Below, in pieces: positions 9,985-28,431 of a stretch of 64,000 nucleotides of DNA. The DNA comes from an uncultured Prevotellaceae bacterium (lineage in GTDB: Bacteria > Bacteroidota > Bacteroidia > Bacteroidales > Bacteroidaceae). The notes under the pieces were generated by a model that ran no database searches, was not told the DNA's origin, and saw nothing but the letters and a program-made list of their open reading frames with translations. The stretch's first letter is position 1. Each line of letters starts with the position of its first letter. Position numbers and translations under genes: made by a program. The stretch is taken from positions 13,345-77,344 of the forward strand of contig CACYYG010000003.1 of the NCBI GenBank assembly GCA_902778535.1, read 5' to 3'.

Positions 9985-10192
9985 CAAAAAAAGAGGGAAT
10001 TACTTGTCAATTAAGATATAAAAAAGAATAAAATGGCGTTTTGAGTATGTAATTATGGCAAAATGAATATTTTTTTCCAGATACGTATTAAACTAACATG
10101 TCAGTAAACAGTTGTTACATGTTAGAAGGGGGAAAAGAGTCAGTCTGTGTGTAAGCTTCTTTTGACAGTTTTTTTATTCATTATTTCAAACC

Positions 10193-10297
10193 AAACTCTT
10201 GATTTAAGCCGTTTACGACTTCCTCGGTCGTAAAAGTGTTAAATCAAGAGTTTGTGCCTCTGAAATTCTTTTCCCCATCATAATTGCCTTTACTTTG
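10193..10297 (+). promoter_or_regulatory. tra operon promoter: nested inverted repeat (10193-10253) containing the motif TCGTAAAAGTGTTAAATCA (10228-10246), plus -7 box TTACTTTG (10290-10297)
   Basis: 15-bp perfect outer arms AAACTCTTGATTTAA/TTAAATCAAGAGTTT and 8-bp inner arms TTTACGAC/GTCGTAAA; the same motif recurs at 28125 and 52886. Confidence 0.7.
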
Positions 10298-10324: not shown

Positions 10325-10843
10325 ATGAGTATATTTGGCATTTATGCATTGATTTGTACTTTCCTGCTGCTGGTCTACTATATGGTTCTCATCTGGTTTG
10401 ACCTTCACGGCAGCAAGGGAAGCAAGAAAGAAGAGGCAGAGACCATCTTCACCGATGACATGGTCGATACCGAGGCATCCACCACTGTTGAGGAACTGGC
10501 CGGTGGCGGCTATCGTCTTGGCTATTCCGATGACGGAGAGCTTCAGGATGAAGAGGCGCAGGATGAAGAGGCGCAGGATGAAGAGGTGACTGTCATACCC
10601 GATGATCAGCTGGAGCCAGCCCCTGGTGATTCTTCTGATGTCTCTTCAGGTGACAACGGTGAGGGAAATGACGCTTCTGAGGACGGTCCTTCGTATGACC
10701 AGGCCATGAAGGTACATAACGAGTCGATGAACGAGGTCACCCACAGCCACCAGATGCGTTGTGAGGGTGCTGAGATGATGGCCATGATGACGGCTCCCAT
10801 CCAGCAGAAGAATCGGTTGCAGAGAACACGAACCACCTGTTAA
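10325..10843 (+). CDS. Single-TM, acidic protein at the head of the tra operon (TraD-like position)
   Basis: N-terminal hydrophobic segment followed by an Asp/Glu-rich tail; first gene after the promoter. ATG 10325 preferred over the track's TTG 10295. Confidence 0.6.
   Translation: MSIFGIYALICTFLLLVYYMVLIWFDLHGSKGSKKEEAETIFTDDMVDTEASTTVEELAGGGYRLGYSDDGELQDEEAQDEEAQDEEVTVIPDDQLEPAPGDSSDVSSGDNGEGNDASEDGPSYDQAMKVHNESMNEVTHSHQMRCEGAEMMAMMTAPIQQKNRLQRTRTTC
10544..10588 (+). repeat. 15-bp tandem repeat x3 (CAGGATGAAGAGGCG), encoding QDEEA x3
   Basis: Directly visible; the third copy ends GTG. Confidence 0.9.
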
Positions 10844-10844
10844 A

Positions 10845-11192
10845 GTGAAAGCTATGAGACGTGTCAAGACAAGAATACTGCTAGCCCTGCTGTCTGTCCT
10901 CCCGCTGGCACAGCCGTCCTATGCCCGTGGTGGTGGCGTCGACTACAGCCAGTCGGCTCAGGCTCTTCATGAGATGAATGTATATATTCTTCTCATTATG
11001 GGCTATGTCACTGAGATCTGCTTTGCCATTGCTGCTCTGCTCTCGACCTACAGTGCCTTGGTGCTGTATCAGAAGGTCTCTTCCGGTGAACAGGGCTTCA
11101 CGAAGGGAGTCCTTGTCCTCATCGGTGGTATTCTCTTCATGATTGCCTCCACGTATGTCATGCCCGCCTTCTTTGGAATCAGGAACATGTGA
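10845..11192 (+). CDS. traE: DUF4134/TraE-like pilin (VirB2-like), copy 1
   Basis: Signal peptide plus two hydrophobic helices ending MPAFFG; upstream of TraF/TraG. Confidence 0.7.
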   Translation: MKAMRRVKTRILLALLSVLPLAQPSYARGGGVDYSQSAQALHEMNVYILLIMGYVTEICFAIAALLSTYSALVLYQKVSSGEQGFTKGVLVLIGGILFMIASTYVMPAFFGIRNM

Positions 11193-11241
11193 TTTTTCAT
11201 TTCGATATGCTTTAGGTTAAATTTTAAAAAAGTAAAACAAC

Positions 11242-11631
11242 ATGAAGAAGTTCGTTAAGAACGTTGCCTCCAACCTCGGAGGCTGTCTGCTCCGTAAGGG
11301 AAAGCAGATTGTGAGAAGTTCCCGTGCCCTCGTCACGGTAGTCATGGCCCTCGTTGCCGGAACGGTGTTCGCCCAGAGCGGTGATGTCAGTGCCGGTGCC
11401 AGTGCCCTTCAGGGTGTCACTAGTGACATTGCGGCTTACCTGCCCTATGTCCAGGCCCTCATCTACATCATCGCTGCCGTGCTGACCGCCCCCAACGCCA
11501 TCGGCGTGTTCCACGAGTGGCAGAACGGTGACCAGGAGGCCAAGAAGCACACTATCGCCCTCGTCGGCGGTGCCATCTTCCTCGTCGTGGCCGTGCAGAG
11601 CCTGCCTCTGTTCTTCGGTGCCGGTGACTAA
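11242..11631 (+). CDS. traE: DUF4134/TraE-like pilin (VirB2-like), copy 2
   Basis: GDVSAGASAL...YLPYV...NGDQEAKK...SLPLFFG family pattern. Confidence 0.8.
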   Translation: MKKFVKNVASNLGGCLLRKGKQIVRSSRALVTVVMALVAGTVFAQSGDVSAGASALQGVTSDIAAYLPYVQALIYIIAAVLTAPNAIGVFHEWQNGDQEAKKHTIALVGGAIFLVVAVQSLPLFFGAGD

Positions 11632-11649
11632 TCCTAATCATCACTGAGC

Positions 11650-11940
11650 ATGGAGAGCAATGAACATCCCGGCTATGTCACCTCCAAGGGGCTTCAGCGC
11701 CCCCTGGAGGTCTTCGGGCTGCGCGGAAGGTACATCTATTGGGCCGTCGGCACAGTCGTGGCTACCTTCCTGCTGTTCGTTGTCGGGTTCATCTTCTCAG
11801 GGTTCACCGTCGGTCTCATCATGAGTACAGCCGTGCTGGGTGCCGGCGGTGGACTTACCTTTATCAAGCAGAGCAAGGGGCTGTACAGTAAAAAAGACGA
11901 CAATGGAGTCTTCATTTTCGCCCGCAGCATCGGCGAGTAA
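11650..11940 (+). CDS. traF: DUF4133/TraF (VirB3-like)
   Basis: KGLQRPLEVFGLRGRYIYW motif, two TM segments, directly upstream of the VirB4 gene. Confidence 0.85.
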   Translation: MESNEHPGYVTSKGLQRPLEVFGLRGRYIYWAVGTVVATFLLFVVGFIFSGFTVGLIMSTAVLGAGGGLTFIKQSKGLYSKKDDNGVFIFARSIGE

Positions 11941-11951
11941 TAAGATATGTT

Positions 11952-14894
11952 ATGATATCATTGATTTGCATATTGGTTTTCGTTTCCGTTCTCATCGGCA
12001 TGGGTATCTCCGTCAAGGCCTTCGGCACTGGCGGCAAGCGTGCCCGTATCTTCCAGGACATCTATTTCAGCATCGAGGATGTTGATGGTATCGGCATCAT
12101 CTATACCAAGACGGGAGAGTATTCCGCCATCATTAAGATGGATAATCCCGTCCTGAAGTTCTCCGCTGACGAGGACAGCTACTATGGCTTCGTGAACCTG
12201 ATGACCTCCGTTGTCACCACGCTTGGCGAGGGCTATGCCCTGCACAAGCAAGACATCTTCGTCCACAAGACTTTCGAGCGTCCCGCCGACGAACCTGTGG
12301 ACAACGGCAAGCGTTTCCTCTCCGAGTCCTATTTCCGTTTCTTCAAGGGCCGTCCCTATACGGCCAGCAGCACCTATCTTGTCATCACCCAGGAGAGCAA
12401 GAAGGGAGGTCTCTTCACTTTTGAGAGCAAGAAATGGGGTGACTTCCAGATGAAGATCCAGAAAGTCTATTCGCTGCTTTCCGACAGCGGCATCACCTGT
12501 TCCTTCCTCAGTATGAAGGAAGCCCGTGAGTATGCCGACCGTTTCTTCGCCGTCAACTTCAACGACAAGGTCTTTTCCATGACCGACTTCAAGGTTGACA
12601 GCGAAGGAATCCGCATGGGCAACAGGCAGTGCAAGGTCTTCAGCCTGATAGACCTCGACAGCGTAGGACTCCCCAATGTCCTCCGTCCCTATACCGAGCT
12701 TCATGTCGATAACGCCACCATGCCCGCCGATCTCATGGGCGACATCGACCATGTGCCTGATGTGGACACCCTTGTCTACAACCAGGTTCTGTTCATCCCC
12801 AACCAGAAGAAGGAGCAGAACAACCTGGAGAAGAAGCAGAACAAGCACCGTGCCATGGCCAACCCCGCCAACATGATTGCCGCCAAGGACATCGAGGAGG
12901 CCCAGGAGGTCATGGCCCGTGAGAACCGCCAGCTTGTCTATTCCCATTTCAACATGCTTGTCAGCATCGGTGCCGACAAGGACATGGACAAGGTCACCAA
13001 CCATCTGGAGAATATCTTCTCCAAACAAAATATCCGTATCAGCCGCCGGGCGTACAACCAGCTGGAGCTTTTCGTGGCCAGCTTCCCCGGTAACTGTTTT
13101 TCTTTGTCGCCCAAGTACGACCGTTTCCTCACGTTCTGTGAGGCCGCCATCTGCCTGATGTACAAGGAGCGTCAGACGCAGGGTGACATCACCCCGCTGC
13201 GCTGCTACTATACCGACCGTCAGGGCGTGCCCATGGCCGTTGACATCACCGGCAAGGAGGGCAAGAAGAAATACACCAATAACAGTAATTTCTTCGTGCT
13301 GGGTCCGAGCGGCAGCGGAAAAAGTTTCTTTATGAATACCGTTGTCCGCCAGTATTACGAGCAGGACACCGATGTCGTCATCGTCGATACCGGCGACAGC
13401 TATGAGGGTATCTGCGGCTATTTCGGCGGTGTCTATATCAGCTACAGCAAGGAACGTCCCATCTCCATGAACCCCTTCAAGGTCACGGAGGAGGAGTACA
13501 CCCAGAACTTCGGAGAGAAAAAGAACTTCCTCAAGAGCCTTATCTTCCTCATCTTCAAGGGCACCGAGAAGCCCACGAAGATTGAAGAGACCATCATCAA
13601 CCAGACCATCGTCGAGTACTACCGTGAGTATTTCACGCCTTTCAGGGGCTACAGCGACACCGAGCGTCAAGAGCTTGCTGACCGTCTCGTTCTCCAGTAC
13701 AAGAAGGACGGCACTTTCGACACCTTTGAGAAGGACTTCGAGAAAGCCTATATGGAGAAGCATGGTGTCAGTCTCACCGAGGAGGAACAGGAGCGTCAGG
13801 ACAGGCTGATGAACAAGGAGCGTAAGCTTGACAACCTTATCAATGACGATGCCGCTACTGAGGGAGAAAAGCACTCCGCCAGGGTGCGTCGTGAGGAGGT
13901 GCACCATGAGCTGATGAAGCTCACCGAGCTTACCGCCAGCAGTTTCGATGACAAGATCAGCCGTGATATCATCAAGATGGAGATGCAGCGCAGCAAGCTC
14001 CGTGTTTCCGAGCTGAGTTTCAATACTTACTATGAGTTTGCCGTGGAGCGCATCCCCCAGATACTGAAGGAGCAGCATGTGGACTTCGCCATCCATGACT
14101 TCGCCACCATCCTGCAGCCGTTCTACAAGGGTGGTGAGCTGGAGTACACGCTGAACAACGATATGGACAGCACCCTTTTCGATGAAAAGTTCATTGTCTT
14201 CGAGATTGACAAGGTGAAGGACGACCCCATCCTTTTCCCCATCATCGTGCTCATCATCATGGATGTGTTCACCCAGAAGATGCGCATCAAGAAAGGCCGC
14301 AAGTGCCTGGTCATCGAAGAGGCGTGGAAGGCCATTGCCACCCCCGTCATGGCAGAGTACATCAAGTACCTCTATAAGACCGCCCGCAAGCATTGGGCGA
14401 TGGTCGGTGTGGTGACGCAGGAGATCCAGGACATCACCAGCAGTGAGATTGTCAAGGAGGCCATCATCAACAACTCCGACGTCTTTATGCTTTTGGACCA
14501 AAGCAAGTTCAAGGACAAGTTCGATGACATCAAGGCCACGCTGGCCTTGACGGACATCGACTGTAAGAAGATCTTTACGATTAACCGTCTTGACAACAAG
14601 GAGGGTCGCAGTCCCTTCAAGGAGGTCTTCATCAAGCGCGGCACAGAGGGAGATGTCTTCGGTGTCGAGGAGCCGAGGGAGTGCTATATCAGCTATACCA
14701 CGGAGAAGGCCGAGAAGGAAGCCCTGAAAGTCTATGTCCGCCATTACGGTGGTGACTACCAGAAGGCCATCGTTGCCTTCATCCATGATTGGGAACGCAG
14801 CGGCATCGGCAAGTCTCTGGAGTTCGCCCGCAAGGTGTTGAAGGAAGGCGTTCTCAACCTCCCCGCAAGGAGTGTGAGGATGATACAAGCATAG
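11952..14894 (+). CDS. traG: TraG / VirB4-family T4SS ATPase
   Basis: Walker A GPSGSGKS, VIVDTGDSY, Walker B LVIEEAW, TARKH...VTQ. Confidence 0.95.
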   Translation: MISLICILVFVSVLIGMGISVKAFGTGGKRARIFQDIYFSIEDVDGIGIIYTKTGEYSAIIKMDNPVLKFSADEDSYYGFVNLMTSVVTTLGEGYALHKQDIFVHKTFERPADEPVDNGKRFLSESYFRFFKGRPYTASSTYLVITQESKKGGLFTFESKKWGDFQMKIQKVYSLLSDSGITCSFLSMKEAREYADRFFAVNFNDKVFSMTDFKVDSEGIRMGNRQCKVFSLIDLDSVGLPNVLRPYTELHVDNATMPADLMGDIDHVPDVDTLVYNQVLFIPNQKKEQNNLEKKQNKHRAMANPANMIAAKDIEEAQEVMARENRQLVYSHFNMLVSIGADKDMDKVTNHLENIFSKQNIRISRRAYNQLELFVASFPGNCFSLSPKYDRFLTFCEAAICLMYKERQTQGDITPLRCYYTDRQGVPMAVDITGKEGKKKYTNNSNFFVLGPSGSGKSFFMNTVVRQYYEQDTDVVIVDTGDSYEGICGYFGGVYISYSKERPISMNPFKVTEEEYTQNFGEKKNFLKSLIFLIFKGTEKPTKIEETIINQTIVEYYREYFTPFRGYSDTERQELADRLVLQYKKDGTFDTFEKDFEKAYMEKHGVSLTEEEQERQDRLMNKERKLDNLINDDAATEGEKHSARVRREEVHHELMKLTELTASSFDDKISRDIIKMEMQRSKLRVSELSFNTYYEFAVERIPQILKEQHVDFAIHDFATILQPFYKGGELEYTLNNDMDSTLFDEKFIVFEIDKVKDDPILFPIIVLIIMDVFTQKMRIKKGRKCLVIEEAWKAIATPVMAEYIKYLYKTARKHWAMVGVVTQEIQDITSSEIVKEAIINNSDVFMLLDQSKFKDKFDDIKATLALTDIDCKKIFTINRLDNKEGRSPFKEVFIKRGTEGDVFGVEEPRECYISYTTEKAEKEALKVYVRHYGGDYQKAIVAFIHDWERSGIGKSLEFARKVLKEGVLNLPARSVRMIQA

Positions 14895-14972
14895 CACCTT
14901 CAGGAGGTTGGAATTACAAACAGTTATATAAATATTAAATTATTTGTTTCAATAATAAAATAAACGAAAGAT

Positions 14973-17600
14973 ATGGTTCGGATACTGTTCATCGTCCTTC
15001 TCGTTGCCCTTGGCGTCGACAGCCATGCCGCCACGTACTATTCGGTCAATTTCGACCGCAAGACGGAGGCTGCCATGGCCTCCACCTATGCCTTGGAGGT
15101 AGCCACAGAGGCCCTGAACAACGAGTCCGTCCAGAAAATCCTCGACCATTACACCAGTGCCGAGGTCGCCACGGCCGGCATCTTCGCCTCCAAGTGGTTT
15201 GACCGCAAGGCGCTCACCAACGTAGGGCCTTTCGGCACGTCCCAGGAGAACTACTACTATGCCCGCATCCGTCGTCTCGTGGTGGACTGCATCCGTCCGA
15301 AGATTTGGAGTGTCGGCAGTCTGATGGTCAAGCACCCCGACAAGGCTCTCTATTGGGGGCCGTACCTCTATAAGACCTGTAACGAGGTCGTCCAGCTGTG
15401 CATGCAGTTCGAGACCATCGTCACCAACGGCAGGCTCACTTTTGAGGACATCGCCGCACAGGGAGCGTTCCTTGTCATCGGTGACGACCTGAAAGTCCTC
15501 TTCGACCTTGCCAAGCTCGGCGAGGTGGACTGGTCAGCTGTCTGGGACCATCTAGTGGACTTCGGTAGCGGTCTGACGAAGGAAGACCTGAAGGAAGACC
15601 TCGACAACCTCCTCAATGCCGGTACTGCCATAGCGGGAGCTGGTGCAGCCGTCCTCGACTCCACCTGGACGAATGCCAGCAAGATAGGCACGGTGTTCCA
15701 CCAGAAGCCGCGTGAGATTATCCGACTGTACTATGAGTTCCGTGACCTCTATGAGACCTTCTCTGACCCCAATGCCATCAAGGACCTCGTGATGGCCCAG
15801 CTCCTCTCCACTGACAGCACGGGTGTTGCCCGTCTGTTTACTACAGACGGCTATCATGTCACGAGCTACGTCAGTGACTATATCAAGGAGATGCAGGGGC
15901 AGTACTATACCCAGCGGTGGTATATCTACTCCCGTGACAGCGGCAGCCGGAAGCTCTGCGACTACAACCCCACGCCACAGTCCGACTATGATGACAGTTG
16001 GCCTGAGTGGAGCCATTTCATCAGTCCACGGGATAACGAGTATTGCCACAAAATGTCAAGGTCCGAAATAGAGACGTGCAGAGCACGCTCCGAGTCGTAT
16101 GCCGGTTGGAGTCAGGCACGTGTCAATGAGTATAACGCATCCAACGGCCACAATGCCTATATCAGCTACCAGCTGAAGCATGAAGACCGCCGTGAGAGCT
16201 ATAAGAACAGTGTATTCGGCAGCAGACATCACAAGCGCCACTGCTTCTATGCCTATGCCATCCAGGTCTGGGATGTCTGGGACTTGCAGGATGTTGTCTA
16301 TGAAGAGGTCTTTGACAGCCAGACGATGGATCCGAATGCTTTCCGCAAGATGATGGAGGCAAAGCTGCTGGAGTACAACAGCCGTGGTGAGGATGATGCA
16401 AATCCCAAGACCTACTATATCGGCATGGACGAAAAGCGTTACTACCAGGCTGCTGATGAGAAGAAGCTCAACGGCTGTGTCAGCGTCAGCTTCACGCTGA
16501 ACTGCCATGACGGAGCCAAGCTCGGCGAAGGCTGCTTTCAGTGGAAGGAGAACGGTGACCAGTACCACTGCCTCAATGAAGACTCTAAGCGTTTCGCTAT
16601 GCAGTCCTCCCTCTCCAGTGGCCCTGACACTGGTGACATCGACGCAGAGATCAGCACGTGGGCAAGCACCGTCACCGACCTTCAGAACCAGATCAATGTG
16701 TTGGAGGCCGAGAACCGTGAGCTGCTGGCAGAGATCAGCAGGGTCAGCGTCGAGGAAGCCGTGGAGCTGCGGGCACGGTATAATGAGAACCTGTCACGTA
16801 TCAACACGCTGCGCACACAGCTCACCACTGCCCAGCGGGAGCTGAACCGTCTGCAGCAGGGCAAGAGTGACATGCTCAACGACTACTACGACGAGGAGGA
16901 CGGCTCCTACCGTATTCCTGCCCTGATGCATGACCTGGAGGGAGCGTACAGCATCGAGTGGTCTGATGCAGGCTCCTGGGACGGCTATACCTTCACCCGG
17001 AAGGGCTATGTGCGTGGCATGAACGGCTCCGTCACCCTGACATGCCGTCTGAAAAAGGTGCGCGGCGAGTCTTGGCTCATCAATTTCTGGGGAGTCCGTC
17101 TCATCCGTATCCACCGTGCCATCCTCGGTGTCGATTGGGAGCTGACAGCCGAGTATTCCTCCTCCGATGTCGTGGACATCATGGAGCTTGCCCCGAACCT
17201 TTCTGACAGTGAGAAGGCCGATGCCGTCAACCGGCGTATGCAGGAGATTCTTCAGGAATATCCCTCGTGCAGCGTTGATGTGGACTATGCCTATTCCGTC
17301 CCTCCCGAGACGGCCGATGATGATGACTCCTATCACCTGCTTTGGGTGTCCGACCGTTTGCGCATTGCCCGTCAGGTGGACTACCGACTGTCGCGCATCT
17401 ATGCCGAGCTGCTCCTGCTGGAGAAGTTCATGTACAGCCGTCAGTCCCTGCTGGACTACCTGAAAGCTGAGGTGTTTGGCGGTCTTGCCGGTGATGTCCG
17501 TAATGTCACCCTCCGTAACAGCTTACGTCACTGGCGTAACAGTGGCCGTCGTGCCTGGAGCGGTGACGGTGCCTATCTGGAGGAAGATGAAACCCCGTAA
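14973..17600 (+). CDS. Secreted 875-aa conjugation-associated protein with a coiled-coil segment
   Basis: Signal peptide (…DSHA), heptad-rich region near 16640-16870, position between traG and traJ. Confidence 0.7.
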   Translation: MVRILFIVLLVALGVDSHAATYYSVNFDRKTEAAMASTYALEVATEALNNESVQKILDHYTSAEVATAGIFASKWFDRKALTNVGPFGTSQENYYYARIRRLVVDCIRPKIWSVGSLMVKHPDKALYWGPYLYKTCNEVVQLCMQFETIVTNGRLTFEDIAAQGAFLVIGDDLKVLFDLAKLGEVDWSAVWDHLVDFGSGLTKEDLKEDLDNLLNAGTAIAGAGAAVLDSTWTNASKIGTVFHQKPREIIRLYYEFRDLYETFSDPNAIKDLVMAQLLSTDSTGVARLFTTDGYHVTSYVSDYIKEMQGQYYTQRWYIYSRDSGSRKLCDYNPTPQSDYDDSWPEWSHFISPRDNEYCHKMSRSEIETCRARSESYAGWSQARVNEYNASNGHNAYISYQLKHEDRRESYKNSVFGSRHHKRHCFYAYAIQVWDVWDLQDVVYEEVFDSQTMDPNAFRKMMEAKLLEYNSRGEDDANPKTYYIGMDEKRYYQAADEKKLNGCVSVSFTLNCHDGAKLGEGCFQWKENGDQYHCLNEDSKRFAMQSSLSSGPDTGDIDAEISTWASTVTDLQNQINVLEAENRELLAEISRVSVEEAVELRARYNENLSRINTLRTQLTTAQRELNRLQQGKSDMLNDYYDEEDGSYRIPALMHDLEGAYSIEWSDAGSWDGYTFTRKGYVRGMNGSVTLTCRLKKVRGESWLINFWGVRLIRIHRAILGVDWELTAEYSSSDVVDIMELAPNLSDSEKADAVNRRMQEILQEYPSCSVDVDYAYSVPPETADDDDSYHLLWVSDRLRIARQVDYRLSRIYAELLLLEKFMYSRQSLLDYLKAEVFGGLAGDVRNVTLRNSLRHWRNSGRRAWSGDGAYLEEDETP

Positions 17601-17605
17601 ATGTA

Positions 17606-18367
17606 ATGATGATGAATAACAGATATATGATTTTCAAGCGGTTGATGGCTTTTCTGCTGTTGCTTGTGCCCGAGGTGGCCCAGGCGCAGTGGGCCTTTGA
17701 TGTCGGCACGGTCGAGGCGATGGTCGCCGACCACAAGCGTATCCGTTCCGTCCTTATCGCCCGCAGCACCGTGGAGCAGGCCAACCAGTTGCTCCATGAT
17801 GCCAGCAAGGATGCGAATGTAGGATACAAGGAACTGAATGTCGACCTTGACAAGTACACCCGCTGCTTCGACCTCATCGACCTCATCCTACAGGGCACGT
17901 CCACTGTCTTCGCCGTCAGGAACACCATCTCTGACGTGTCCGACAAGGTTGGCAAGTACCGGGACTTGCTGCAGACCTATAGTGACAAGTGCCTGCTCAA
18001 GGGTGATGTCGTGTCCAGCGACACCATTATCATCGGTATCAGCCAGCGGACGATAGCGCGTATCGTCGACGATGCAGATGACCTCGTGGACTCGTTCCAG
18101 GACCTCCTGGCCATCTATGCCGTCGGAGCTGCCACCGACGCCCCGGAGAGCAAGACCGTGATGATGATTGGTGTGCTGCGGGCCATCAACGGCAGCCTGG
18201 AAGACATACGGCTGTCTGTCAATGCCGCCTATATCGACCTCTGGAAGTATATCCGTGTCCGTACCACCTACTGGAAGGATGCCATCTACCAGGCCAGGAG
18301 TCTCACGGAGATTGCCAATGATGCCTTCAGCCGCTGGAAGGTGGCTGCTGATGTTTTTGACTATTAG
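17606..18367 (+). CDS. Secreted helical conjugation protein (TraI/VirB5-like position)
   Basis: Signal peptide (AQA-Q), predicted all-helical, within the tra operon. Confidence 0.6.
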   Translation: MMMNNRYMIFKRLMAFLLLLVPEVAQAQWAFDVGTVEAMVADHKRIRSVLIARSTVEQANQLLHDASKDANVGYKELNVDLDKYTRCFDLIDLILQGTSTVFAVRNTISDVSDKVGKYRDLLQTYSDKCLLKGDVVSSDTIIIGISQRTIARIVDDADDLVDSFQDLLAIYAVGAATDAPESKTVMMIGVLRAINGSLEDIRLSVNAAYIDLWKYIRVRTTYWKDAIYQARSLTEIANDAFSRWKVAADVFDY

Positions 18368-18383
18368 AGAAAGGAGAACGACT

Positions 18384-19109
18384 ATGAATACTATATCCAA
18401 GATGATGGCTGCCCTGCTGCTGATGGCCGTGACGGTGCCTGTCACTGCCCAGACGTACAACCATGACGCATCCGTCTACAACCAGTTCCTCGTCGGTGAG
18501 ACCGGCGGCGGCTCCCTCACGCCCCAGCTTTATTATGATGCCACCCACAACAGTTACCAGAAGTGGGCCTACATGGAGAACAAGAATTTGTTCCGTGGCC
18601 AGCTCACCCTTGTCCTGGAGCGCGAGAAGCCGATGGCCGAGCAGATAGACTCCGCCCTGACGTACCGTGCGAAGATCGAGGCCATGAATGTCACCGACCG
18701 CACGCCCAAGGCCCTCGACTTGGCATGGCAGGCAGAGAAGGGTAAGATTGAGAAGAAGTTCCAGTTGTTCCGCGAGAACATCAACAAGATCACGATGAAG
18801 GGCGGGACGTCGCAGGACTATCGTGACTGGCTGGAGATATACAACTGCCTCCAGACGGCGCTGCAGGCCGTCCGTGATGCCTACATGCCGCTCAATGAGC
18901 GTAAGAAGCAGTATCTGGAGATCTACCATGACATCGTGCTGCGTAACAACCAGCTCGTCCAGTTCATCACTTCCCGTTCCTACGGCAAGGAGGCCGATGA
19001 GTTGCTGCGCAGTAAGGTCAGTCCCCGTTATGTGCGTCTCAGCGGCTACACCTCCGATGCCATGGGGCGCTGGAAGGTGGCGATGGCTGCCGGTGTCGTT
19101 GGAGAATAG
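18384..19109 (+). CDS. Secreted conjugation protein (DUF5045-like)
   Basis: True start MNTISK at 18384; signal peptide (VTA-Q); directly upstream of traJ. Family label is from recall only. Confidence 0.6.
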   Translation: MNTISKMMAALLLMAVTVPVTAQTYNHDASVYNQFLVGETGGGSLTPQLYYDATHNSYQKWAYMENKNLFRGQLTLVLEREKPMAEQIDSALTYRAKIEAMNVTDRTPKALDLAWQAEKGKIEKKFQLFRENINKITMKGGTSQDYRDWLEIYNCLQTALQAVRDAYMPLNERKKQYLEIYHDIVLRNNQLVQFITSRSYGKEADELLRSKVSPRYVRLSGYTSDAMGRWKVAMAAGVVGE

Positions 19110-19130
19110 TAACGAATAAACGATTTACAT

Positions 19131-20264
19131 ATGTCAGTATCAGGATTACTACTACAGGCCGGTGGCGGCCTTGTCGATGCCCTTGACAGCATCAGCAGCA
19201 ACGTGGGTGTTGAGCTGTTCGAGGAGGAGATCGATGACGTCATCTTCCAGACTAATGAGTTCCTCACCGATGCCACCTTCACGGGTGACAACGGCCCGTT
19301 CTGGTGGATATTACAGATGAGCATGTGCCTCGGTGCCCTCTTTGCCATCATCATGGCGGCCGGCATGGCCTACAAGATGATGGTGAAGGGCGAGACCTTC
19401 GACCCCCTGAAGATCGTCAGGGTGTTGGGTATCGCCTTGGTCATGACACTATGGTATGGTGACTTTAGCGTCCTCGACGGTCTCGCCTATATCCCCAACT
19501 GCATCGGTTCCTACACCCATGACCTCTATGAAGCGGAGGCGGCGCAGGTGCAGGACAGGTATGCCCAGCTCATGCCTCTCATCGTGCAGCGTGACTCCCT
19601 GACGCGTAATGCCCAGGGCGAGATCAATGCCGCCGCCAACAGCGTCAGCGGCAATGGTGTCCAGGAGTCCGTCAGCGAGGGCATGGGGCTGGAGGCTGCC
19701 ACCAGCTCCACCGTGTCGGCAGAGAAGGCCAAGACGATGACGCTCTATGCGGGCCTGATGGTCTTCTTGGACAAGATCATCATGTTCATTGCCCTTGTCG
19801 CCTTCCGTATCGGCTGGTGGGGCACCATCTACTGCCAGCAGATACTGCTGGGTATGCTCACCATCTTCGGTCCCATCCAGTGGGCCTTCTCACTGCTCCC
19901 GAAGTGGGAGGGTGCCTGGGCGAAGTGGATAACGAGGTATCTCACCGTGCATTTCTACGGCGCGATGCTTTACTTCGTGGGGTTCTATGTCCTGCTGCTC
20001 TTCGACATCGTGCTCAGCGTGCAGTATGAGAACCTCACCGCTATCTTAGAGACCCAGCAGACCTTCAACGGCTATCTGCAGAACACCATCATGACGGCAG
20101 GCTACCTCCTCGTGGCGAGCATTGTAGCCCTGAAGTGCCTGAACCTCGTCCCCGACCTTGCCGCGTGGATGATTCCCGAGGGTGACACCGCCTTCTCCAC
20201 CCGTAATTTCGGTGAGGGTGTTGCCAGTCAGGCAAAGGCCAGTGCCACCTCCATTATACGATAA
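19131..20264 (+). CDS. traJ: TraJ (VirB6-like polytopic membrane protein)
   Basis: Multiple TM helices; LTIFGPIQWAFSLLPKWEGAWAKWITRY is TraJ-like; upstream of traK. Confidence 0.85.
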   Translation: MSVSGLLLQAGGGLVDALDSISSNVGVELFEEEIDDVIFQTNEFLTDATFTGDNGPFWWILQMSMCLGALFAIIMAAGMAYKMMVKGETFDPLKIVRVLGIALVMTLWYGDFSVLDGLAYIPNCIGSYTHDLYEAEAAQVQDRYAQLMPLIVQRDSLTRNAQGEINAAANSVSGNGVQESVSEGMGLEAATSSTVSAEKAKTMTLYAGLMVFLDKIIMFIALVAFRIGWWGTIYCQQILLGMLTIFGPIQWAFSLLPKWEGAWAKWITRYLTVHFYGAMLYFVGFYVLLLFDIVLSVQYENLTAILETQQTFNGYLQNTIMTAGYLLVASIVALKCLNLVPDLAAWMIPEGDTAFSTRNFGEGVASQAKASATSIIR

Positions 20265-20281
20265 TCAAACAATATTTCGAT

Positions 20282-20896
20282 ATGGTAATCAAGAATCTGG
20301 AAAACAAAATCAAGCTGGTGCTTATCATTTGCTGCCTGTTCCTTACCGGCTGCGTTGTCATCAGCGTGTCGAGTCTCTTTGTCGCCAAGGGCATGGTCGA
20401 TGATGCTCAGAAGAAGATCTACGTCCTTGACGGCACCGTCCCCGTTCTCGTGCAGCGCACGACGATGGATGAGACGCTGGACGTCGAGGCGAAGAGCCAT
20501 GTGGAGCTGTTCCACCATCTCTTCTTCACCCTCGCCCCTGATGACAAGTACATCAATTACACGATGGAGAAGGCCATGTACCTCGTCGACGAGTCCGGTC
20601 TGGCGCAGTACAACACCCTGAAGGAACGCGGTCTGTTCCAGAACATCATCGGCACGAGCAGTGTCTTCAGTATCTTCTGTGACAGCATCGCCCTGAACAC
20701 GGAGGAGATGACCTTCACCTACTATGGCCGGCAGCGCATAGAGCGCAGGACGAACATCCTCTACCGTGAGATTGTCACCACGGGCGGCCTGAAGCGTGTC
20801 CCCAGGACAGAGAATAACCCTCACGGTCTGATGATTGTCAACTGGCGCACCATCCTCAACAAGGACATCGAGCAGCGCAAGAAGAGTGATTTCTAA
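20282..20896 (+). CDS. traK: TraK (VirB8-like)
   Basis: HVELFHHLFFTLAPD and RTENNPHGLMI motifs. Confidence 0.95.
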   Translation: MVIKNLENKIKLVLIICCLFLTGCVVISVSSLFVAKGMVDDAQKKIYVLDGTVPVLVQRTTMDETLDVEAKSHVELFHHLFFTLAPDDKYINYTMEKAMYLVDESGLAQYNTLKERGLFQNIIGTSSVFSIFCDSIALNTEEMTFTYYGRQRIERRTNILYREIVTTGGLKRVPRTENNPHGLMIVNWRTILNKDIEQRKKSDF

Positions 20897-20913
20897 TGAT
20901 GGAGGAGTGAGCT

Positions 20914-21243
20914 ATGGGATTCAAGAAGTTTTTCCTGGGTGAGCCGATGCCCGACAAGAACGATCCGAAGTACCGGGAGCGCTATGAGCGTGAGGTGGCT
21001 GCCGGCCGCCGGTTCGCCGATGCCGTCGGCATCAGCTGGCTGGCGCGTAAGATACATACGGCCGCCTGTCATAACAAGACCCTGTTCCTTGTCGTCGCCT
21101 TCGGCATCGTCCTCGCCTGTTTCACCTTCAATGTCGTCACGATGGTGAAGGTGTTCAACCGCAGCAACAGCAAGGGCAGCAATGCCGTTGAGCAGGTGGA
21201 CAGGGCCATGCAGCACCGTAACGGTGATGCTCCAGTACAATAA
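20914..21243 (+). CDS. traL: TraL-like small membrane protein
   Basis: Single TM, located between traK and traM. Confidence 0.6.
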   Translation: MGFKKFFLGEPMPDKNDPKYRERYEREVAAGRRFADAVGISWLARKIHTAACHNKTLFLVVAFGIVLACFTFNVVTMVKVFNRSNSKGSNAVEQVDRAMQHRNGDAPVQ

Positions 21244-21265
21244 TGGAAATAAAACAACTAACGAT

Positions 21266-22489
21266 ATGAAAAAGATTAATTTCAAGCAGAGCAAGTATAT
21301 ACTGCCTATAGGCGTATACCTCCTTGCGTTGTTCATCGGCTATCAGGTCATCCGTCTCTTCACCATCGAGGTTGAGGACAAGGGTGACGCCAGTCTTGTC
21401 ACCACCGACTATCTCAATGGTGAGCTTCCTTCCGCCAATGTCAGTGACCGTCTGGGCAGCAAGCGTGAGAACATGCAGCACAGCTTCGGCTATATCACCG
21501 ACAACAGTGCAGTAGAGAATATCGTCGATGATACCGACAGTCTACGTCGCAAGGAAGACTACAGCACGCAGTATACCGATGAGGAGCGGGCCGCCTTGGA
21601 GCGTCAGGCTAAGGAGGCTGAGGATCGCAAGCGTTACGAGGAGCTGCAGGCTCGTCTTCAGGGGGGTGACCGTCAAGGGCCTCCCATGGGAGCCGGTGAC
21701 TTCGTGCTGCCGATGAGTGATGAGGAGCGTGAGCATGCCCTCCAGAGCCGTCGCAGCCGTGAGATGGAGGAAATGGAGGCTGCCTTGGGTCTCGCCCGTT
21801 CGCAGGGTCGTGGCCGTCTTGCCAGTCCGGATGATGTCCTGCCCGCAGACACCGTGACGGACGATGACGATGATGTTGTCGGTCAGGCCGATGCCGTCGC
21901 CGTCCTCGATGACGATGCTGAGAGCCAGACCGTCGTCAAGAAGCGTGCCGACACCAGTGACTATTTCAACACCCTCAGTGAGAACGCTCCTGAGTCACAT
22001 CTCATCAAGGCCATCATTGATGAGGAGGTGAAGGCTACCGAAGGCAGTCGTGTGCGCCTACGTCTGCTCGATGATATTGAGGTCGGTGACATCCCCATGA
22101 AGAAAGGCAGCTACCTCTATGCCACGATGAGCGGCTTCAGCAAGCAGCGTGCCAAGGGCAAGGTGGAGAGCATCATGGTCGGTGACGAGCTGTTTAAGGT
22201 TGGCCTGACCATCTTCGACACCGATGGTCTCGAAGGTCTTTATGTCCCTGGCTCTCAGTTTATGGAAACCGTCAAGGACGTGGGCGGTTCTGCCATGCAG
22301 ACCAATATGAATCTCAATGACGGCGGCAGCAACGGCAACAATGTCGAGCAGTGGGCGATGCAGGGCCTCCAGAATGCCTATCGGCGCACCTCCAATGCCA
22401 TCAGCAAGGCCATCAAGAAGAACCGTGTCCGTCTGAAATACGGCACACAGGTCTATCTTGTTAATAGTAAGGACAAGAAGAAGCGTTAG
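21266..22489 (+). CDS. traM: TraM (VirB10-like)
   Basis: IKAIIDEE...GSRVRLRLL...FDTDGLEGLYVP; start MKKINF at 21266. Confidence 0.9.
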   Translation: MKKINFKQSKYILPIGVYLLALFIGYQVIRLFTIEVEDKGDASLVTTDYLNGELPSANVSDRLGSKRENMQHSFGYITDNSAVENIVDDTDSLRRKEDYSTQYTDEERAALERQAKEAEDRKRYEELQARLQGGDRQGPPMGAGDFVLPMSDEEREHALQSRRSREMEEMEAALGLARSQGRGRLASPDDVLPADTVTDDDDDVVGQADAVAVLDDDAESQTVVKKRADTSDYFNTLSENAPESHLIKAIIDEEVKATEGSRVRLRLLDDIEVGDIPMKKGSYLYATMSGFSKQRAKGKVESIMVGDELFKVGLTIFDTDGLEGLYVPGSQFMETVKDVGGSAMQTNMNLNDGGSNGNNVEQWAMQGLQNAYRRTSNAISKAIKKNRVRLKYGTQVYLVNSKDKKKR

Positions 22490-22542
22490 CTATTTTTCCA
22501 TATACCGATATAATTAAATAATTCAATAATAAAATAATTATT

Positions 22543-23397
22543 ATGCGAGTCAAGAGAACAACCTTTTGTGGCGCGATGCTCCTGTGCGCCCTGCTGGTGT
22601 CAGGCACGCTGTCTGCCCAGCAAACCTACAATGAGATGGAGCAGCTCACTGTCAATGAGCATGTCACCACCGTCATCACCTCCCCAGAGCCTGTGCGTCT
22701 GGTGGACATCTCCACCGGCCTCGTGGCGGGTGACAAGCCCATCGAGAATGTCATCCGTCTGAAGCCCAAGGAGGGCGGCCATGAGGATGGTGAGGTGCTG
22801 GCCATCGTTACCGTCGTCGGTGAGCGCTACCGTGCGCAGTATGCCCTTGTCTATACGACGCGCCTGGAGGAAGCCGTCACCGACAAGGAGGTGCTTCTTA
22901 CCGAGCAGACCGCCTTCCATAACCCTGCCGTCAGCATGAGTACCGAGGAGATGGTACGTTTCGCCCGCCGTATCTGGAACAGCCCTGCCAAGTACCGTAA
23001 TGTCTGTTCCAGGCACCGTAAGATGGTGATGCGCCTGAACAACATCTATTCCGTGGGTGAGTATTTCTTCATCGATTTCAGCGTGGAGAACAAGACCAGC
23101 CTTCGCTTCGACATTGACGAGCTGCGCTTCAAGCTCGCCGACAAGAAGCAGCAGAAGGCCACCAATGTGCAGATGGTCGAGCTGGAGCCGGTCCTGCTCC
23201 TCGACAGGAGTGCCAGCTTCCGTCATGGCTACCGCAATGTCGCCGTCCTGAAGAAGATGACATTCCCCGGTGACAAGGTGCTGAGTATCGAGCTGAATGA
23301 GAAACAGATCAGCGGCCGCACCATCACGATGACCATCGACTATGAGGATGTCCTTGCTGCTGACAGTTTCGATGCCTTGCTTTTAAAGGAAGAGTAA
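22543..23397 (+). CDS. traN: TraN (DUF4138, VirB9-like)
   Basis: Signal peptide; TTVITSPEPVRLVDIS...NVIRLKP; KMTFPGDKVLSIELNEKQISGR. Confidence 0.9.
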   Translation: MRVKRTTFCGAMLLCALLVSGTLSAQQTYNEMEQLTVNEHVTTVITSPEPVRLVDISTGLVAGDKPIENVIRLKPKEGGHEDGEVLAIVTVVGERYRAQYALVYTTRLEEAVTDKEVLLTEQTAFHNPAVSMSTEEMVRFARRIWNSPAKYRNVCSRHRKMVMRLNNIYSVGEYFFIDFSVENKTSLRFDIDELRFKLADKKQQKATNVQMVELEPVLLLDRSASFRHGYRNVAVLKKMTFPGDKVLSIELNEKQISGRTITMTIDYEDVLAADSFDALLLKEE

Positions 23398-23413
23398 CCA
23401 AAATCTGTGAGCC

Positions 23414-23941
23414 ATGAACAAAGTATATCATCAAGTGTTCTTCGGATTGGCACTGCTTGTCCTTTCCGTCTGTTCCGTCCTGCCCGTGCGTGCCCAGGGC
23501 AGTAACCAGGACCGTCTGATGCTCAGTGTCGGTGCCCTCTATGAGCGTGGCTTCGATGCCACCGTCGCGTGGGAGCATGAGACCAAGTACCACCATGCCT
23601 GGGAGTATTTCGCCACTGGCTACCTGAAGTACTGTGACGACCCCGATGCGGGTCATGTCACCACGAAGTCCTTCTGGGACAGCTATAACACCTGGCATGT
23701 CGGCATCGCCTACAAGCCCTGTGTCAGCCGCGGCCGCAACCACCACGGCAATGCCCGTCTTGGCATCAGCGGCGGCAGTGACCGCCACCGTTTCGTCGGC
23801 GGCATCCATGTCGGCTATGAGCACAGCTATGCGCTGAAGCAGGGCTGGCAGCTCTTCTTTCAGGTGAAGGAGGATGTCATCATCAAGGGTGACGACCTCT
23901 TCCGTACCGGCGTTGCCGTCGGTGTCAAAGTACCTCTGTAA
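23414..23941 (+). CDS. traO: TraO-like outer-membrane beta-barrel
   Basis: Signal peptide, alternating aromatic beta-strands, follows traN. Confidence 0.65.
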   Translation: MNKVYHQVFFGLALLVLSVCSVLPVRAQGSNQDRLMLSVGALYERGFDATVAWEHETKYHHAWEYFATGYLKYCDDPDAGHVTTKSFWDSYNTWHVGIAYKPCVSRGRNHHGNARLGISGGSDRHRFVGGIHVGYEHSYALKQGWQLFFQVKEDVIIKGDDLFRTGVAVGVKVPL

Positions 23942-23965
23942 TCACACATTTACATTATTATACCT

Positions 23966-24643
23966 ATGAAAAAGATGTTTATAATACCATTGATGGCGCC
24001 CCTGTGCCTGTTGTCTGCCTCTTGTGATGAGCATGAGGCCATAGACCTTGACGTGCATACGGGCTATATCCTCTGTGATGACGGTCAGGTTCTTGATGAG
24101 GATACCTATTTCGCCCAGGATAAGCGAAAGGCCGTCGCCGTCGTCTTCGCTCCACAGACGGAGGAGCATCCCGTGCTCGCCGTCCTGCTGGACGAGATCT
24201 CACCCGTCGCCTTCTGTGACACGCTGGGCATGGAGCAGGGTACCAGCTGTGACGAGTCCGCCTTTGACGGCTATGCGAACACCACGGCCATGCAGAACAG
24301 CCGTGACCAGCGTACCGGCAAAGGCTCCCCTCTGGCTGATGAAGCCTTCACCTATCATTATTTCTGGCAGAGCGACTATATCCCGAGTGTCGCGGAGATG
24401 GGGCTGCTGTTCATTGCCAAGGAGCATGTCAATCCCATCATCGTGCGTTGTGGCGGTACCCCGCTCAGCATCGATGCCGACGGTGGCGGCTGCTGGTACT
24501 GGACAAGTACTGAGGTGGAGCCGAACAAGGACAACCAGGCATGGCTCTTCTCCATGAGTGACGGCAGCCGCCATAAGACTCCCAAGACTAATACTTACCG
24601 TGCGCGTGCCATTGTCGAGTATAATCCGTTGAACATATATTGA
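23966..24643 (+). CDS. Lipoprotein with DUF1566/Lcl-like C-terminal domain
   Basis: Lipobox LSAS-C followed by acidic DEHE; YIPSVAEM and WYWTSTE motifs. Confidence 0.7.
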   Translation: MKKMFIIPLMAPLCLLSASCDEHEAIDLDVHTGYILCDDGQVLDEDTYFAQDKRKAVAVVFAPQTEEHPVLAVLLDEISPVAFCDTLGMEQGTSCDESAFDGYANTTAMQNSRDQRTGKGSPLADEAFTYHYFWQSDYIPSVAEMGLLFIAKEHVNPIIVRCGGTPLSIDADGGGCWYWTSTEVEPNKDNQAWLFSMSDGSRHKTPKTNTYRARAIVEYNPLNIY

Positions 24644-24658
24644 AGAAAGGATATTGCC

Positions 24659-25273
24659 ATGGGTTGGGGAAAGACATTGGGAAAGAACCTCGTCCGGGGC
24701 ACCGGCTTCGGGCTGAGGCACACCAAGGGCGCCTTGGTCGTCGGAGGTGTCGGCTACGGCATCTATTCGGGACAGGGCGCGTTGAACACCTGGGGCGACT
24801 GGGCCTTGGGAAAGGACAGGATGGACCAGCTGAAGAAGGACGGCGTGGCTCCTGTCATCGGTGATGCCCTCCTGGGTGAGGGCGGTACGGACAAGGCCGT
24901 CGAGAAGGGCAAGGACCTCATCAGCGGTGTCGGTGATGCCCTCGGAGGTGTCAGGGAGGGAGCGTCAGGCCTTTTCGGCGGTCTCGGCAACCTCGTCAGT
25001 GGCATCTTTGGCGGCGGCACCAGCAGCCTTGTCGGCCTTATCGCTGCGGGGATGATGCTCTTCGGCAATTTCGGCTGGATGGGTAAGATTGTCTGCGGCC
25101 TTATCGCTGCCATGTCCTTCGGGCTCTTCGGCGGTCAGCAGTCATCACAGGCCCAGCAGCTTGCCGCTGCTCCCCTGCGGGGGCAGGACGGTGGCCGTCA
25201 GCAGTCTTTGCTGCCTGAGACGGAAGGAGATGATGAAGAAAACGGACAAGTAATCTACAGACCAAGGAGATGA
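24659..25273 (+). CDS. Gly-rich membrane protein of unknown function
   Basis: ORF with backbone codon bias; hydrophobic Gly-rich helices. Confidence 0.65.
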   Translation: MGWGKTLGKNLVRGTGFGLRHTKGALVVGGVGYGIYSGQGALNTWGDWALGKDRMDQLKKDGVAPVIGDALLGEGGTDKAVEKGKDLISGVGDALGGVREGASGLFGGLGNLVSGIFGGGTSSLVGLIAAGMMLFGNFGWMGKIVCGLIAAMSFGLFGGQQSSQAQQLAAAPLRGQDGGRQQSLLPETEGDDEENGQVIYRPRR

Positions 25274-26118: not shown

Positions 26119-26399
26119 ACCCGCTCGCCAGCCTCCAGATCCTCGATGCCCAGAGCTATGACGTCAGCCGTACCGCCTCCGTCTTCGCTGACAGTAGCGG
26201 TCATCGCTGGTGGACGAAGGCGTGGTTCAATGGCCGTGAGAAAGGCGAGAAGGCCGTAGAGATACCACGTGCCATGGCTGTCAAGTTCGTCAATGACGAG
26301 ATTGGCAAGGATGCATGGCTGACACGTTTCTATCCGAAGCAGATGAGCGTGCTCAGCAATGCCATCGCCCAGACCAGACAGCAGCTGTTAGGACTATAA
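26058..26399 (+). CDS. Hypothetical protein in the -1 frame of the M23 gene (possibly its frameshifted C-terminus)
   Basis: Only a TTG start before the A10 run; backbone-like codon usage after 26082. Confidence 0.6.
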   Translation: MGRCSKKKASEQAAADGYYVDPLASLQILDAQSYDVSRTASVFADSSGHRWWTKAWFNGREKGEKAVEIPRAMAVKFVNDEIGKDAWLTRFYPKQMSVLSNAIAQTRQQLLGL

Positions 26400-26410
26400 A
26401 TGTTACTGCT

Positions 26411-28124: not shown

Positions 28125-28194
28125 TCATCAAAGTGTTAAATCAAGAGTTTGTGCCCTCCAGATTCCGCTGTTGGGCAGAATCTTCTTTATTTTG
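28125..28194 (+). promoter_or_regulatory. Promoter of the DUF1896/polyvalent-protein operon: motif copy (28125-28143) plus -7 box TTATTTTG (28187-28194)
   Basis: 26-bp identity (28130-28155) with 10233-10258 and the same spacing to the -7 box. Confidence 0.7.
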
Positions 28195-28221: not shown

Positions 28222-28431
28222 ATGACCAAAGAAGAAATGACCTATTACCGTCTCTATCTGAAGGACTACCTCCGTCAGCAGCATGACCCTCGTGCCGACG
28301 ATGAGGAGTTCCTCCGTGCCCGTTCTGACAGGGCAGAGGAAGCCTATGAGCAGGGCCGTCGTGAGGGCCTTGCCGTCTGGCAGGCCCAGGAGCGTGCCAT
28401 CAGGTCGCTGACGGCAGAACTGGACAGTTAG
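28222..28431 (+). CDS. DUF1896 family protein
   Basis: [14 protein letters not shown]...[13 protein letters not shown]; usual position upstream of the MTase-helicase in Bacteroidetes elements. Confidence 0.8.

Follow-up and report, generated by a model that had tools for sequence, protein, structure and literature searches.

Each backbone operon of a conjugative element carried by an uncultured Prevotellaceae bacterium is preceded by one and the same short motif, which we read as a directional upstream promoter element that would put all the backbone operons of this ICE under one trans-acting DNA-binding factor, putatively an activator. We put the probability of this reading at roughly 0.55. 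The window, that is, the whole stretch of DNA that was analysed, comprises 64,000 nt of contig CACYYG010000003.1 in assembly GCA_902778535.1 (C3:13345-77344, C3 being our name for the contig; positions given without a contig name are those of the window). It represents a Bacteroidota conjugative element with a type-B T4SS, two glucosaminidase/M23 hydrolases and a coupling protein at the window end. The G+C content of the backbone, from 10 to 53 kb, is ~55%, and that of the stretches at 1-10 kb and 54-62 kb, which are cargo, is 36-40%.

The motif, TCGTAAAAGTGTTAAATCA (AGAGTTTG), has nine copies genome-wide, on contigs C3 and C9 only. Five matches with three mismatches at most are found in the window, versus 0.02 expected from shuffles: exact ones at 10228(+), 52886(+) and 52876(-), one with two mismatches at 28125(+) and one with three at 10200-10218(-). 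The initial annotation had placed a 19-bp motif at the first four of these positions, counting 28125(+) as a 17/19 copy; motif search bears out all four, but the fifth, degenerate copy had been overlooked. It had also described a -7 box 62 bp from each of its four motifs, and these boxes are confirmed by sequence reading: TTACTTTG at 10290-10297, TTATTTTG at 28187-28194, TATTTTTG at 52948-52955 and TAATTTTG at 52814-52807(-). The same relation holds outside the window, where four further promoter-facing copies, at C3:84174(-), C3:90399(-), C9:235900(+) and C9:235890(-), have a box at +62 in four out of four cases (TAATTTCG, TACCTTTG, CACCTTTG and TTCCTTTG). Altogether, a box of the form TAnnTTTG, or a one-base variant of it, begins 62 nt from the motif start at all eight gene-facing copies. 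Since the background rate of such a loose box is ~0.003 per position, eight boxes out of eight at one exact offset are not due to chance. Measured from GTTAA, the distances to the box in the window cluster at 52 nt only. Each site stands ahead of the first gene of an operon, with a box-to-ATG distance of 28-50 nt. The degenerate copy at 10218(-) is the only one lacking a -7 box at +62, and it is probably the relic of a lost divergent promoter beside the AT-rich cargo insertion.

The sites (A, B and C+/C- in the window, D and E for the two further sites on C3, F+/F- for the pair on C9), their boxes and the genes that they face are the following.

10192..10218, minus strand: degenerate left half-site TCGTAAACGGCTTAAATCAAGAGTTTG, with core CTTAA instead of GTTAA
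10228..10254, plus strand: site A, TCGTAAAAGTGTTAAATCAAGAGTTTG, ahead of the T4SS (tra) operon; found by motif search
10290..10297, plus strand: tra -7 box TTACTTTG, 62 nt from the motif start and 52 nt from GTTAA; ATG at 10325
10325..28105, plus strand: tra operon, with DUF4134 twice, DUF4133, TraG P-loop ATPase, TraJ-like, TraK, TraM, TraN/DUF4138, M23 peptidase and a 596-aa protein
28125..28151, plus strand: site B, lone half-site TCATCAAAGTGTTAAATCAAGAGTTTG, beginning 20 nt past the stop codon of the tra operon
28187..28194, plus strand: -7 box TTATTTTG, 62 nt from the motif start; DUF1896 ATG at 28222
28222..51698, plus strand: operon of DUF1896, the 6594-aa polyvalent giant, a glucosaminidase/M23 hydrolase, a 213-aa protein and an ArdC-type protein
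51783..52777, minus strand: DUF4099 (52022-52777) and a 73-aa acidic protein (51783-52004), a two-gene unit kept in relatives
52807..52814, minus strand: -7 box TAATTTTG, 62 nt from the motif start
52854..52876, minus strand: site C-, half-site TCGTAAAAGTGTTAAATCAAGAC facing DUF4099; found by motif search
52886..52908, plus strand: site C+, half-site TCGTAAAAGTGTTAAATCAGGAG facing the hydrolase gene; its TCG begins 9 nt past the end of site C-
52948..52955, plus strand: -7 box TATTTTTG, 62 nt from the motif start; ATG at 52977
52977..53996, plus strand: M23 peptidase / glucosaminidase cell-wall hydrolase, the first gene of the OmpA-like...T4CP operon in cargo-free relatives
C3:84174, minus strand: copy upstream of the OmpA-like gene heading an operon that ends with the coupling protein
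C3:90399, minus strand: copy upstream of an operon of six to seven genes, among them a Mob_Pre relaxase
C9:235890, minus strand, and C9:235900, plus strand: inverted pair between a small uncharacterised gene and a TopoIII-ParA-121-aa unit

The ATG of DUF4099 was placed at 52777 on the basis of homologues starting with MPRLERF. From the genes that it precedes, the motif appears to be the cis-regulatory site defining a backbone regulon that comprises the T4SS, the anti-defence giant, DUF4099, the hydrolase, the relaxase and coupling-protein operons and TopoIII-ParA. A backbone regulon of the T4SS, the giant and the wall hydrolases had been proposed in the initial annotation; the motif does mark co-ordinately built promoters, but that listing was incomplete, and it has to be extended by the OmpA-like...T4CP operon, the operon with the Mob_Pre relaxase, DUF4099, TopoIII-ParA and a further divergent unit. 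Regarding the boxes, TAnnTTTG is exact at C+, C- and E, whereas TTnnTTTG is found at A, B and F+, TAnnTTCG at D and CAnnTTTG at F-. The non-consensus TTnnTTTG boxes of the two long-operon promoters, pointed out in the initial annotation, are not peculiar to this genome: the tra and DUF1896/giant promoters keep this weaker box in four out of four complete or near-complete elements.

While the motif is real, the 19-bp box originally taken as the unit does not describe it fully. The conserved block measures 23-27 nt and reads TCGTAAAAGTGTTAAATCAAGAG, followed usually but not always by TTTG. The 39 nt separating the AGAG of the motif from the box have no similarity among sites, and therefore distance, not sequence, is under constraint there. 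Two regions, 10192-10254 and 52854-52908, are inverted half-site pairs with arms of 22-28 nt, so that sites A and C, as well as F, form inverted repeats of 22-28 nt with loops of 7-9 nt; B, D and E are lone half-sites without an inverted partner. Across lineages, the separation of the half-sites within a pair varies from 18 to 65 nt, while each of them stays 52-53 nt from its own box. Because of this, we take the working unit to be a directional half-site together with its own promoter, rather than a 19-bp box. The apparent palindromes are two half-sites placed back to back, one per divergent promoter, and, with each half-site tied to its own box, the palindrome is a by-product of divergent transcription.

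Relatives were collected through the DUF4099 protein, since the exact motif is rare. The 14-mer motif core gave lone matches at chance level only in 150 genomes of the same family, and a palindrome pattern search of the genome contig collection gave no match. The DUF4099 protein had three distant matches only in 400 genomes of the same order, and a metagenome scan with the 596-aa protein returned near-identical loci only, plus one uninformative locus. Extending the motif scan from the genome to the relatives obtained, the core GTTAAWT is found 52 nt, or rarely 53 nt, before a -7 box at 37 sites in at least ten elements (32 sites at 52 nt and five at 53 nt). A reversed-pattern control gave 0-2 matches per genome, versus 5-8 observed. 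In relatives with DUF4099 identities of 85, 62 and 59%, the hydrolase/DUF4099 intergenic region retains both half-sites, with 52/53 nt from the G of GTTAA to the box, and the remainder has diverged. At identities of 49-43% (L027, L029, L038-L041 and Segatella copri) the flanks are altered, and GTTAAWT with its 52/53 nt is kept. The spacing between motif and box thus appears to be functionally constrained, being kept at 52-53 nt with DUF4099 43-85% identical and the spacer free.

The complete arrangement recurs in several of these elements. S. copri HDE04 (NZ_CP152346) has six copies of cTTTTGCAAtTGTTAATTTCAAAGGTATAT, a 31-nt version of the motif, within 38 kb, and the box is 52 nt from GTTAA in all six; these sites precede DUF4099, the hydrolase...T4CP operon, DUF1896/giant, the tra operon, traJ and a lipoprotein operon. 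The Prevotella MAG G555 has six sites aATCGTAAATGTGTTAAATCAAGA, all at 52 nt and at the same six promoters as in the studied genome, and the MAG G551 has four sites. The flanks of the motif are near-identical within an element and lineage-specific between elements. In the L027 lineage only the core GTTAAWAT is common to its sites, and therefore recognition of the whole 23-31 nt block is less well supported. Relatives in Bacteroides/Phocaeicola, with DUF4099 identity of 41% or less, have a different inverted pair at the same intergenic position, ...AGTATGAT-N12-ATCATACT..., and copies of the AGTATGAT/ATCATACT type cluster in a B. finegoldii element. In the literature, we found no paper with the motif strings and none describing such a motif in Bacteroidales ICEs.

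The position of the site relative to the promoter is the other important issue. The consensus of Bacteroidota sigma-ABfr promoters is -33 TTTG / -7 TAnnTTTG, as cited in PMC7366714. In host promoters of the studied genome, TTTG starts 24 nt before the box and an A-tract lies ~40 nt before it. At the ICE promoters the -33 TTTG was not found, and an ATTTTC/ATTC-like sequence occupies that position instead; its lack is not diagnostic, because the -33 TTTG is weak or absent in many Bacteroidota promoters (PMC7366714). The layout of the ICE promoters is GTTAAWT, 45 nt and then the -7 box. If the G of the box is near -7, the site would span about -76 to -50, with its centre near -63. The site stops ~35 nt short of the -7 box and ~9 nt short of the -33 region.

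In the mechanism that we propose, the unit would be formed by a 23-27 nt site with core GTTAAAT, a free spacer of 35-39 nt with a weak -33-like ATTTTC, and a -7 box of the sigma-ABfr type, at which transcription would begin. A factor bound to the site near -63 would contact RNA polymerase from one helix face and, as class I activators do, would activate promoters that are weak without it. At divergent operons, two such units would stand back to back, giving a palindrome-like appearance. The protein that determines specificity would be encoded by the element itself, which we infer because the flanks are alike within an element and different between lineages and between related hosts. Positive control is favoured because a site near -63 is clear of the core promoter, and it is only from the position of the site (about -76 to -50) and from its strict orientation and phasing that we infer the activator role. 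A fixed distance to a Bacteroidota -7 box kept across deep divergence, combined with directionality, looks like the signature of a cis element working with RNA polymerase.

A static pattern of this kind could also arise from a repressor or from a host factor. The motif might be the operator of a global repressor encoded by the element, with negative feedback in the style of KorA/KorB/TrbA in RK2 or ArdK/StbA/KorA in R388, which we consider unlikely but worth serious attention. The backbone promoters would then be constitutive, shut off once the element is established, and would be released in a burst on entry into a recipient that lacks the repressor. Such an entry burst would suit the anti-defence operon, and one and the same site is present at all backbone promoters, including that of the ArdC/giant operon, which is needed early in a new host, ahead of any activator made by the element. 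Moreover, the -7 boxes are close to consensus, lineage-specific variants of the motif are to be expected from an immunity-like specificity, and at the putative far end of the element there is an XRE-like gene, oriented divergently to an HTH/Xis/primase operon, that S. copri shares. However, a protein bound to the site, which stays ~35 nt clear of the -7 box and ~9 nt clear of the -33 region, would not occlude the core promoter. Distance and orientation that do not vary by a single base over deep divergence are what one would rather expect of a factor touching RNA polymerase, and the long operons have weakened TTnnTTTG boxes in four lineages. That the core (GTTAAAT or the IHF-like AATCAAGAGTTTG) is the target of a host protein, IHF/HU-like or a factor of stable-RNA and r-protein promoters, seems quite unlikely to us; the element would be borrowing an upstream element of the host, and the flanks would hitch-hike or serve a second factor. 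It is true that all lineages have in common only the core GTTAAWT and its 52-nt distance, that the host itself has GTTAAA 64/65 nt (also 54 and 42 nt) before tRNA and r-protein -7 boxes, and that a DNA-binding protein encoded by the backbones of all lineages was not found. Besides, AATCAAGAGTTTG matches the E. coli IHF consensus, WATCAANNNNTTR. This consensus fits via AATCAAGAGTTTG at A, B, D, E, F+ and the degenerate 10218(-), and it has no fit at C+, C- and F-, and the match is also lost in S. copri, L029, L038 and L041. Against a host protein, 23-31 nt are near-identical at 6-8 sites per element with flanks that differ in related Prevotella/Segatella hosts, which a host factor would not select; in addition, the 52 nt of the ICE are out of phase with the 54 and 64/65 nt host classes, and the N5-TTAA half of the host element is missing from the ICE motif.

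The inverted repeats themselves could be taken for hairpins, such as an oriT/nic repeat, a single-strand promoter of the Frpo type serving early expression in the recipient, or a bidirectional terminator, or for functionless remains of a duplicated promoter, and to these options we give hardly any credence. Arms of 22-28 nt with loops of 7-9 nt at A, C and F would be suitable for folding, but the single half-sites B, D and E cannot fold, and the half-site separation is variable in relatives. An element has 6-8 sites versus a single oriT, the palindromes lie between divergent gene starts and not at gene ends, and an Rfam search of the sites gave no family match. Neutral duplication is excluded by the exact box spacing, which is kept while the spacer diverges. 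More of a long shot than either a repressor or a host protein, in our opinion, is that these promoters form a distinct Prevotella/Segatella class, in which an element factor of a new family, bound near -63, would recruit RNA polymerase to -33-less promoters. The flanks would then be private, mutually orthogonal circuits, an 'immunity group' for activation, and the GTTAA core would have been borrowed from the upstream element of host tRNA/r-protein promoters; if so, the expression of transfer genes would also be tied to the growth state of the host.

For an element-encoded activator, which we prefer, comparison with known systems is helpful. SetCD of the SXT/R391 ICEs and AcaCD of the IncA/C plasmids are master activators of conjugative elements. 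As in those systems, one motif stands here ahead of many backbone operons (transfer, excision, accessory) in a fixed relation to the core promoter and defines a regulon (eight promoters here, six in S. copri HDE04 and six in G555), and it may reach a second locus, in this case TopoIII-ParA on C9. The SetCD/AcaCD boxes, however, are of class II, lying next to the -35 or taking its place, and FlhDC-like heteromers bind them, whereas the site here is near -63, upstream of the -33 region in a promoter of the Bacteroidota type; moreover, no FlhC/FlhD-like activator gene was seen by Pfam/NCBIfam among ~55 ORFs, a scan that covered part of the cargo regions. RK2 (KorB operators, KorA, TrbA) and R388 (ArdK, StbA, KorA, TrwA) have global repressor networks, which resemble the present case in the repetition of the same operator at most backbone promoters and in the joint control of transfer, maintenance and anti-restriction genes. 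Their operators lie over or beside the core promoter, or else work from varying distances, whereas here distance and orientation are fixed and the site is well upstream; a ParB/KorB homologue was not found here, the RHH-like ParA partner being only a candidate. The class I marbox of MarA/SoxS/Rob is an asymmetric site of ~20 nt, read by a monomer, for which orientation and distance are strictly required. The likeness to it is in logic only, namely an asymmetric ~20 nt site in fixed orientation and distance: no AraC-family gene was found in the backbone here, and the sequences are unrelated.

RteC of CTnDOT acts on the promoter of the excision operon from a position 50-70 nt upstream, and Xis2c/Xis2d, together with Exc, act on Ptra from upstream (PMC3809561); a positively acting site at such a position therefore has a precedent in the phylum. 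The putative site described here, at about -76 to -50, would correspond in position to the 50-70 nt of RteC. CTnDOT belongs to the same phylum and has the same T4SS type, and its small Xis-like proteins double as transfer activators; a 67-aa HTH_17 Xis-like gene at the putative end of the present element may be a counterpart. There are also differences. CTnDOT employs different factors at different promoters in a cascade, whereas one motif serves all operons here, and the present ICE family is one with a DUF4099/DUF1896/giant backbone in Prevotella/Segatella hosts. An RteC homologue was not found in the genome (no match to PF09357, for which the positive control matched in B. thetaiotaomicron). 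We know of no sequence similarity between the CTnDOT sites and the motif. The motif is of the same functional kind as the SetCD/AcaCD boxes, the KorB/R388 operators and the RteC/Xis2d sites of CTnDOT, with no homology to them and with a geometry of its own.

The initial annotation had stated that the regulator is not evident in the window, in agreement with Pfam/NCBIfam scans of the backbone ORFs, which gave no DNA-binding family. DUF4099 always stands divergent from the hydrolase across the paired sites. As a regulator it was discarded, being acidic and having a model (pLDDT 92.6) with no PDB fold match at E < 0.02. The 73-aa protein and DUF1896 were discarded together with it as DNA binders, all three being acidic with pI 4.4-5, and PDB sequence searches with the three proteins gave no match.

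The element probably spans two contigs, C3 and C9. The 3' half of tRNA-Ser is duplicated at C9:155853-155906 and C3:94448-94501, and in S. copri the ParA/121-aa pair is located ~11 kb past the tra operon. Beside the putative far end, at C9:158-166 kb, there are an XRE-like protein, a 102-aa HTH protein, the 67-aa HTH_17 Xis-like protein (C9:159090-159293) and a Toprim primase; this contig end would belong to the same element. The candidates for the regulator are thus outside the window, at C9:158-159.3 kb, namely the 102-aa HTH, the 67-aa HTH_17 Xis-like and the XRE-like proteins. S. copri has homologues of the XRE-like, 102-aa HTH and primase genes at 836-842 kb, with 35-41% identity, and a 92-aa HTH-like ORF in the place of the HTH_17 gene, which BLAST did not match to the 67-aa protein. 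A Mor-like match of the 102-aa protein is sub-threshold (E 0.02), and the HTH of this protein is invariant in 13 homologues. Its model (pLDDT 76) gives HTH-type fold matches, none of them significant, among which are the ArdK-DNA structures 7bca/7bcb. The protein was not found in six MAGs of the motif family, these MAGs being incomplete, and we regard it as a weak candidate. The 121-aa RHH-like partner of ParA (C9:239218-239583) was set aside; the ParA promoter of S. copri is without the motif.

CTnDOT is essentially the one system in Bacteroidota whose control of transfer has been worked out, and we think that the motif offers a handle on a different ICE family, found widely in Prevotella/Segatella of rumen and gut and equipped with large cargos for anti-defence and defence. 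The rigid layout can be used for annotating operon starts, for sorting elements into regulatory lineages and for fishing for the regulator. One carrier of the motif, S. copri HDE04, has been cultured and comes within the scope of the published genetic toolbox for P. copri (PMC8634118), which makes the hypothesis directly testable.

A side observation concerns the host genome. At tRNA and ribosomal-protein genes, GTTAAA recurs there at set distances from the -7 box, 64/65 nt ahead of it and also 54 and 42 nt, and this host element has a second half, N5-TTAA. Its presence at tRNA/r-protein promoters may be of interest for Bacteroidales promoter biology more widely.

The 3' half of tRNA-Ser is present twice, in the same orientation, on two contigs of the source genome: C9 (155853-155906) and C3, the contig that carries the window (94448-94501). 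Because of this repetition, we think that the region from 155.9 kb on C9 to the end of that contig, together with C3 from its start to 94.4 kb, may be occupied by the element or by several elements in a tandem array. This putative span covers at least 182 kb, for the most part low-G+C cargo. Immediately to the left of the C9 repeat, a further 21-nt tRNA fragment accompanies a sequence similar to an integrase-proximal end (C9:155700-155808), which suggests the remnant of another element.

The following module is found on C9:

C9:158026-160509 (3026-5509 of the fetched locus L160), XRE-like gene, divergent from genes for a 102-aa HTH protein, a 67-aa HTH_17 protein and a Toprim primase

The module is mostly common to this genome and Segatella copri HDE04 (836-842 kb), in which the XRE-like gene, the 102-aa HTH gene, the primase gene and two further genes are shared. 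The module's own promoter lacks the extended motif but carries GTTAAT, which precedes the -7 box by 54 nt (by 53 nt in S. copri).

At the tra promoter, the left half-site of the motif pair (window 10192-10218, minus strand) is degenerate, has no -7 box and adjoins the AT-rich cargo cassette of E1-E2/SecA-like genes. It appears to be the relic of a divergent promoter that was lost on cargo insertion. Within its tra operon, the S. copri HDE04 element has an additional motif site, complete with -7 box, upstream of the traJ-like gene (G548:C1:811747-811761, minus strand), whereas in the window element no motif site precedes the traJ-like gene.

In more distant relatives, the same intergenic position between the hydrolase and DUF4099 genes is occupied by a different inverted pair, ..AGTATGAT-N12-ATCATACT.., which starts about 78 nt upstream of the -7 box:

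L044, L047, L052, L063, L065, L072, L085 and L087, loci of Bacteroides/Phocaeicola genomes with the AGTATGAT-N12-ATCATACT pair

Copies similar to this pair are clustered in 54 kb of B. finegoldii JCM 13345. One motif per element lineage may be a principle across the wider ICE superfamily. The DUF4099 protein itself (window 52022-52777, minus strand) is acidic, and its gene always stands first in a unit of two, followed by the gene for a small acidic protein. Its AlphaFold model is very confident (pLDDT 92.6, pTM 0.78), and comparison with PDB folds gave no match with E < 0.02.

Two further features lie beyond the window end:

C3:91176-91278 (L015 15176-15278), plus strand, SAM-I/IV riboswitch (score of 56 bits, which exceeds the gathering threshold)
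C3:90832-91107, 276-bp block with 83% identity to C51:33136-33412 of the MAG G551

The riboswitch is placed within the element, past the last motif site and before the SSB/integrase end, immediately 5' of an N-formylglutamate-amidohydrolase-like gene. As to the block, proteins of these two elements are 50-80% identical. No convincing ORF is found in it, the best one across it being just 59% identical to G551 as protein, and this pattern suggests a conserved non-coding element, e.g., an sRNA or oriT.

Across the whole source genome, TAnnTTTG boxes are preceded by GTTAAA with its start at a distance of 64 nt (25 cases) or 65 nt (17 cases), against a background of about 3; lesser peaks lie at 54 and 42 nt. 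Examples of this host element are:

C8:61068, plus strand
C7:76189, plus strand
C5:68777, minus strand
C16:128804, plus strand
C17:14342, minus strand
C42:46657, plus strand

The genes 3' of such promoters are tRNA-Ser, tRNA-Leu and tRNA-Arg, as well as those of ribosomal proteins L28, L19, L21, S13 and L13, and GTTAAA may represent an upstream element, as yet undescribed, of promoters for stable RNAs and ribosomal proteins. Its frequent form is GTTAAA-N5-TTAA, and in many of these promoters four heptad repeats (TCAATTT-like) separate it from the box.
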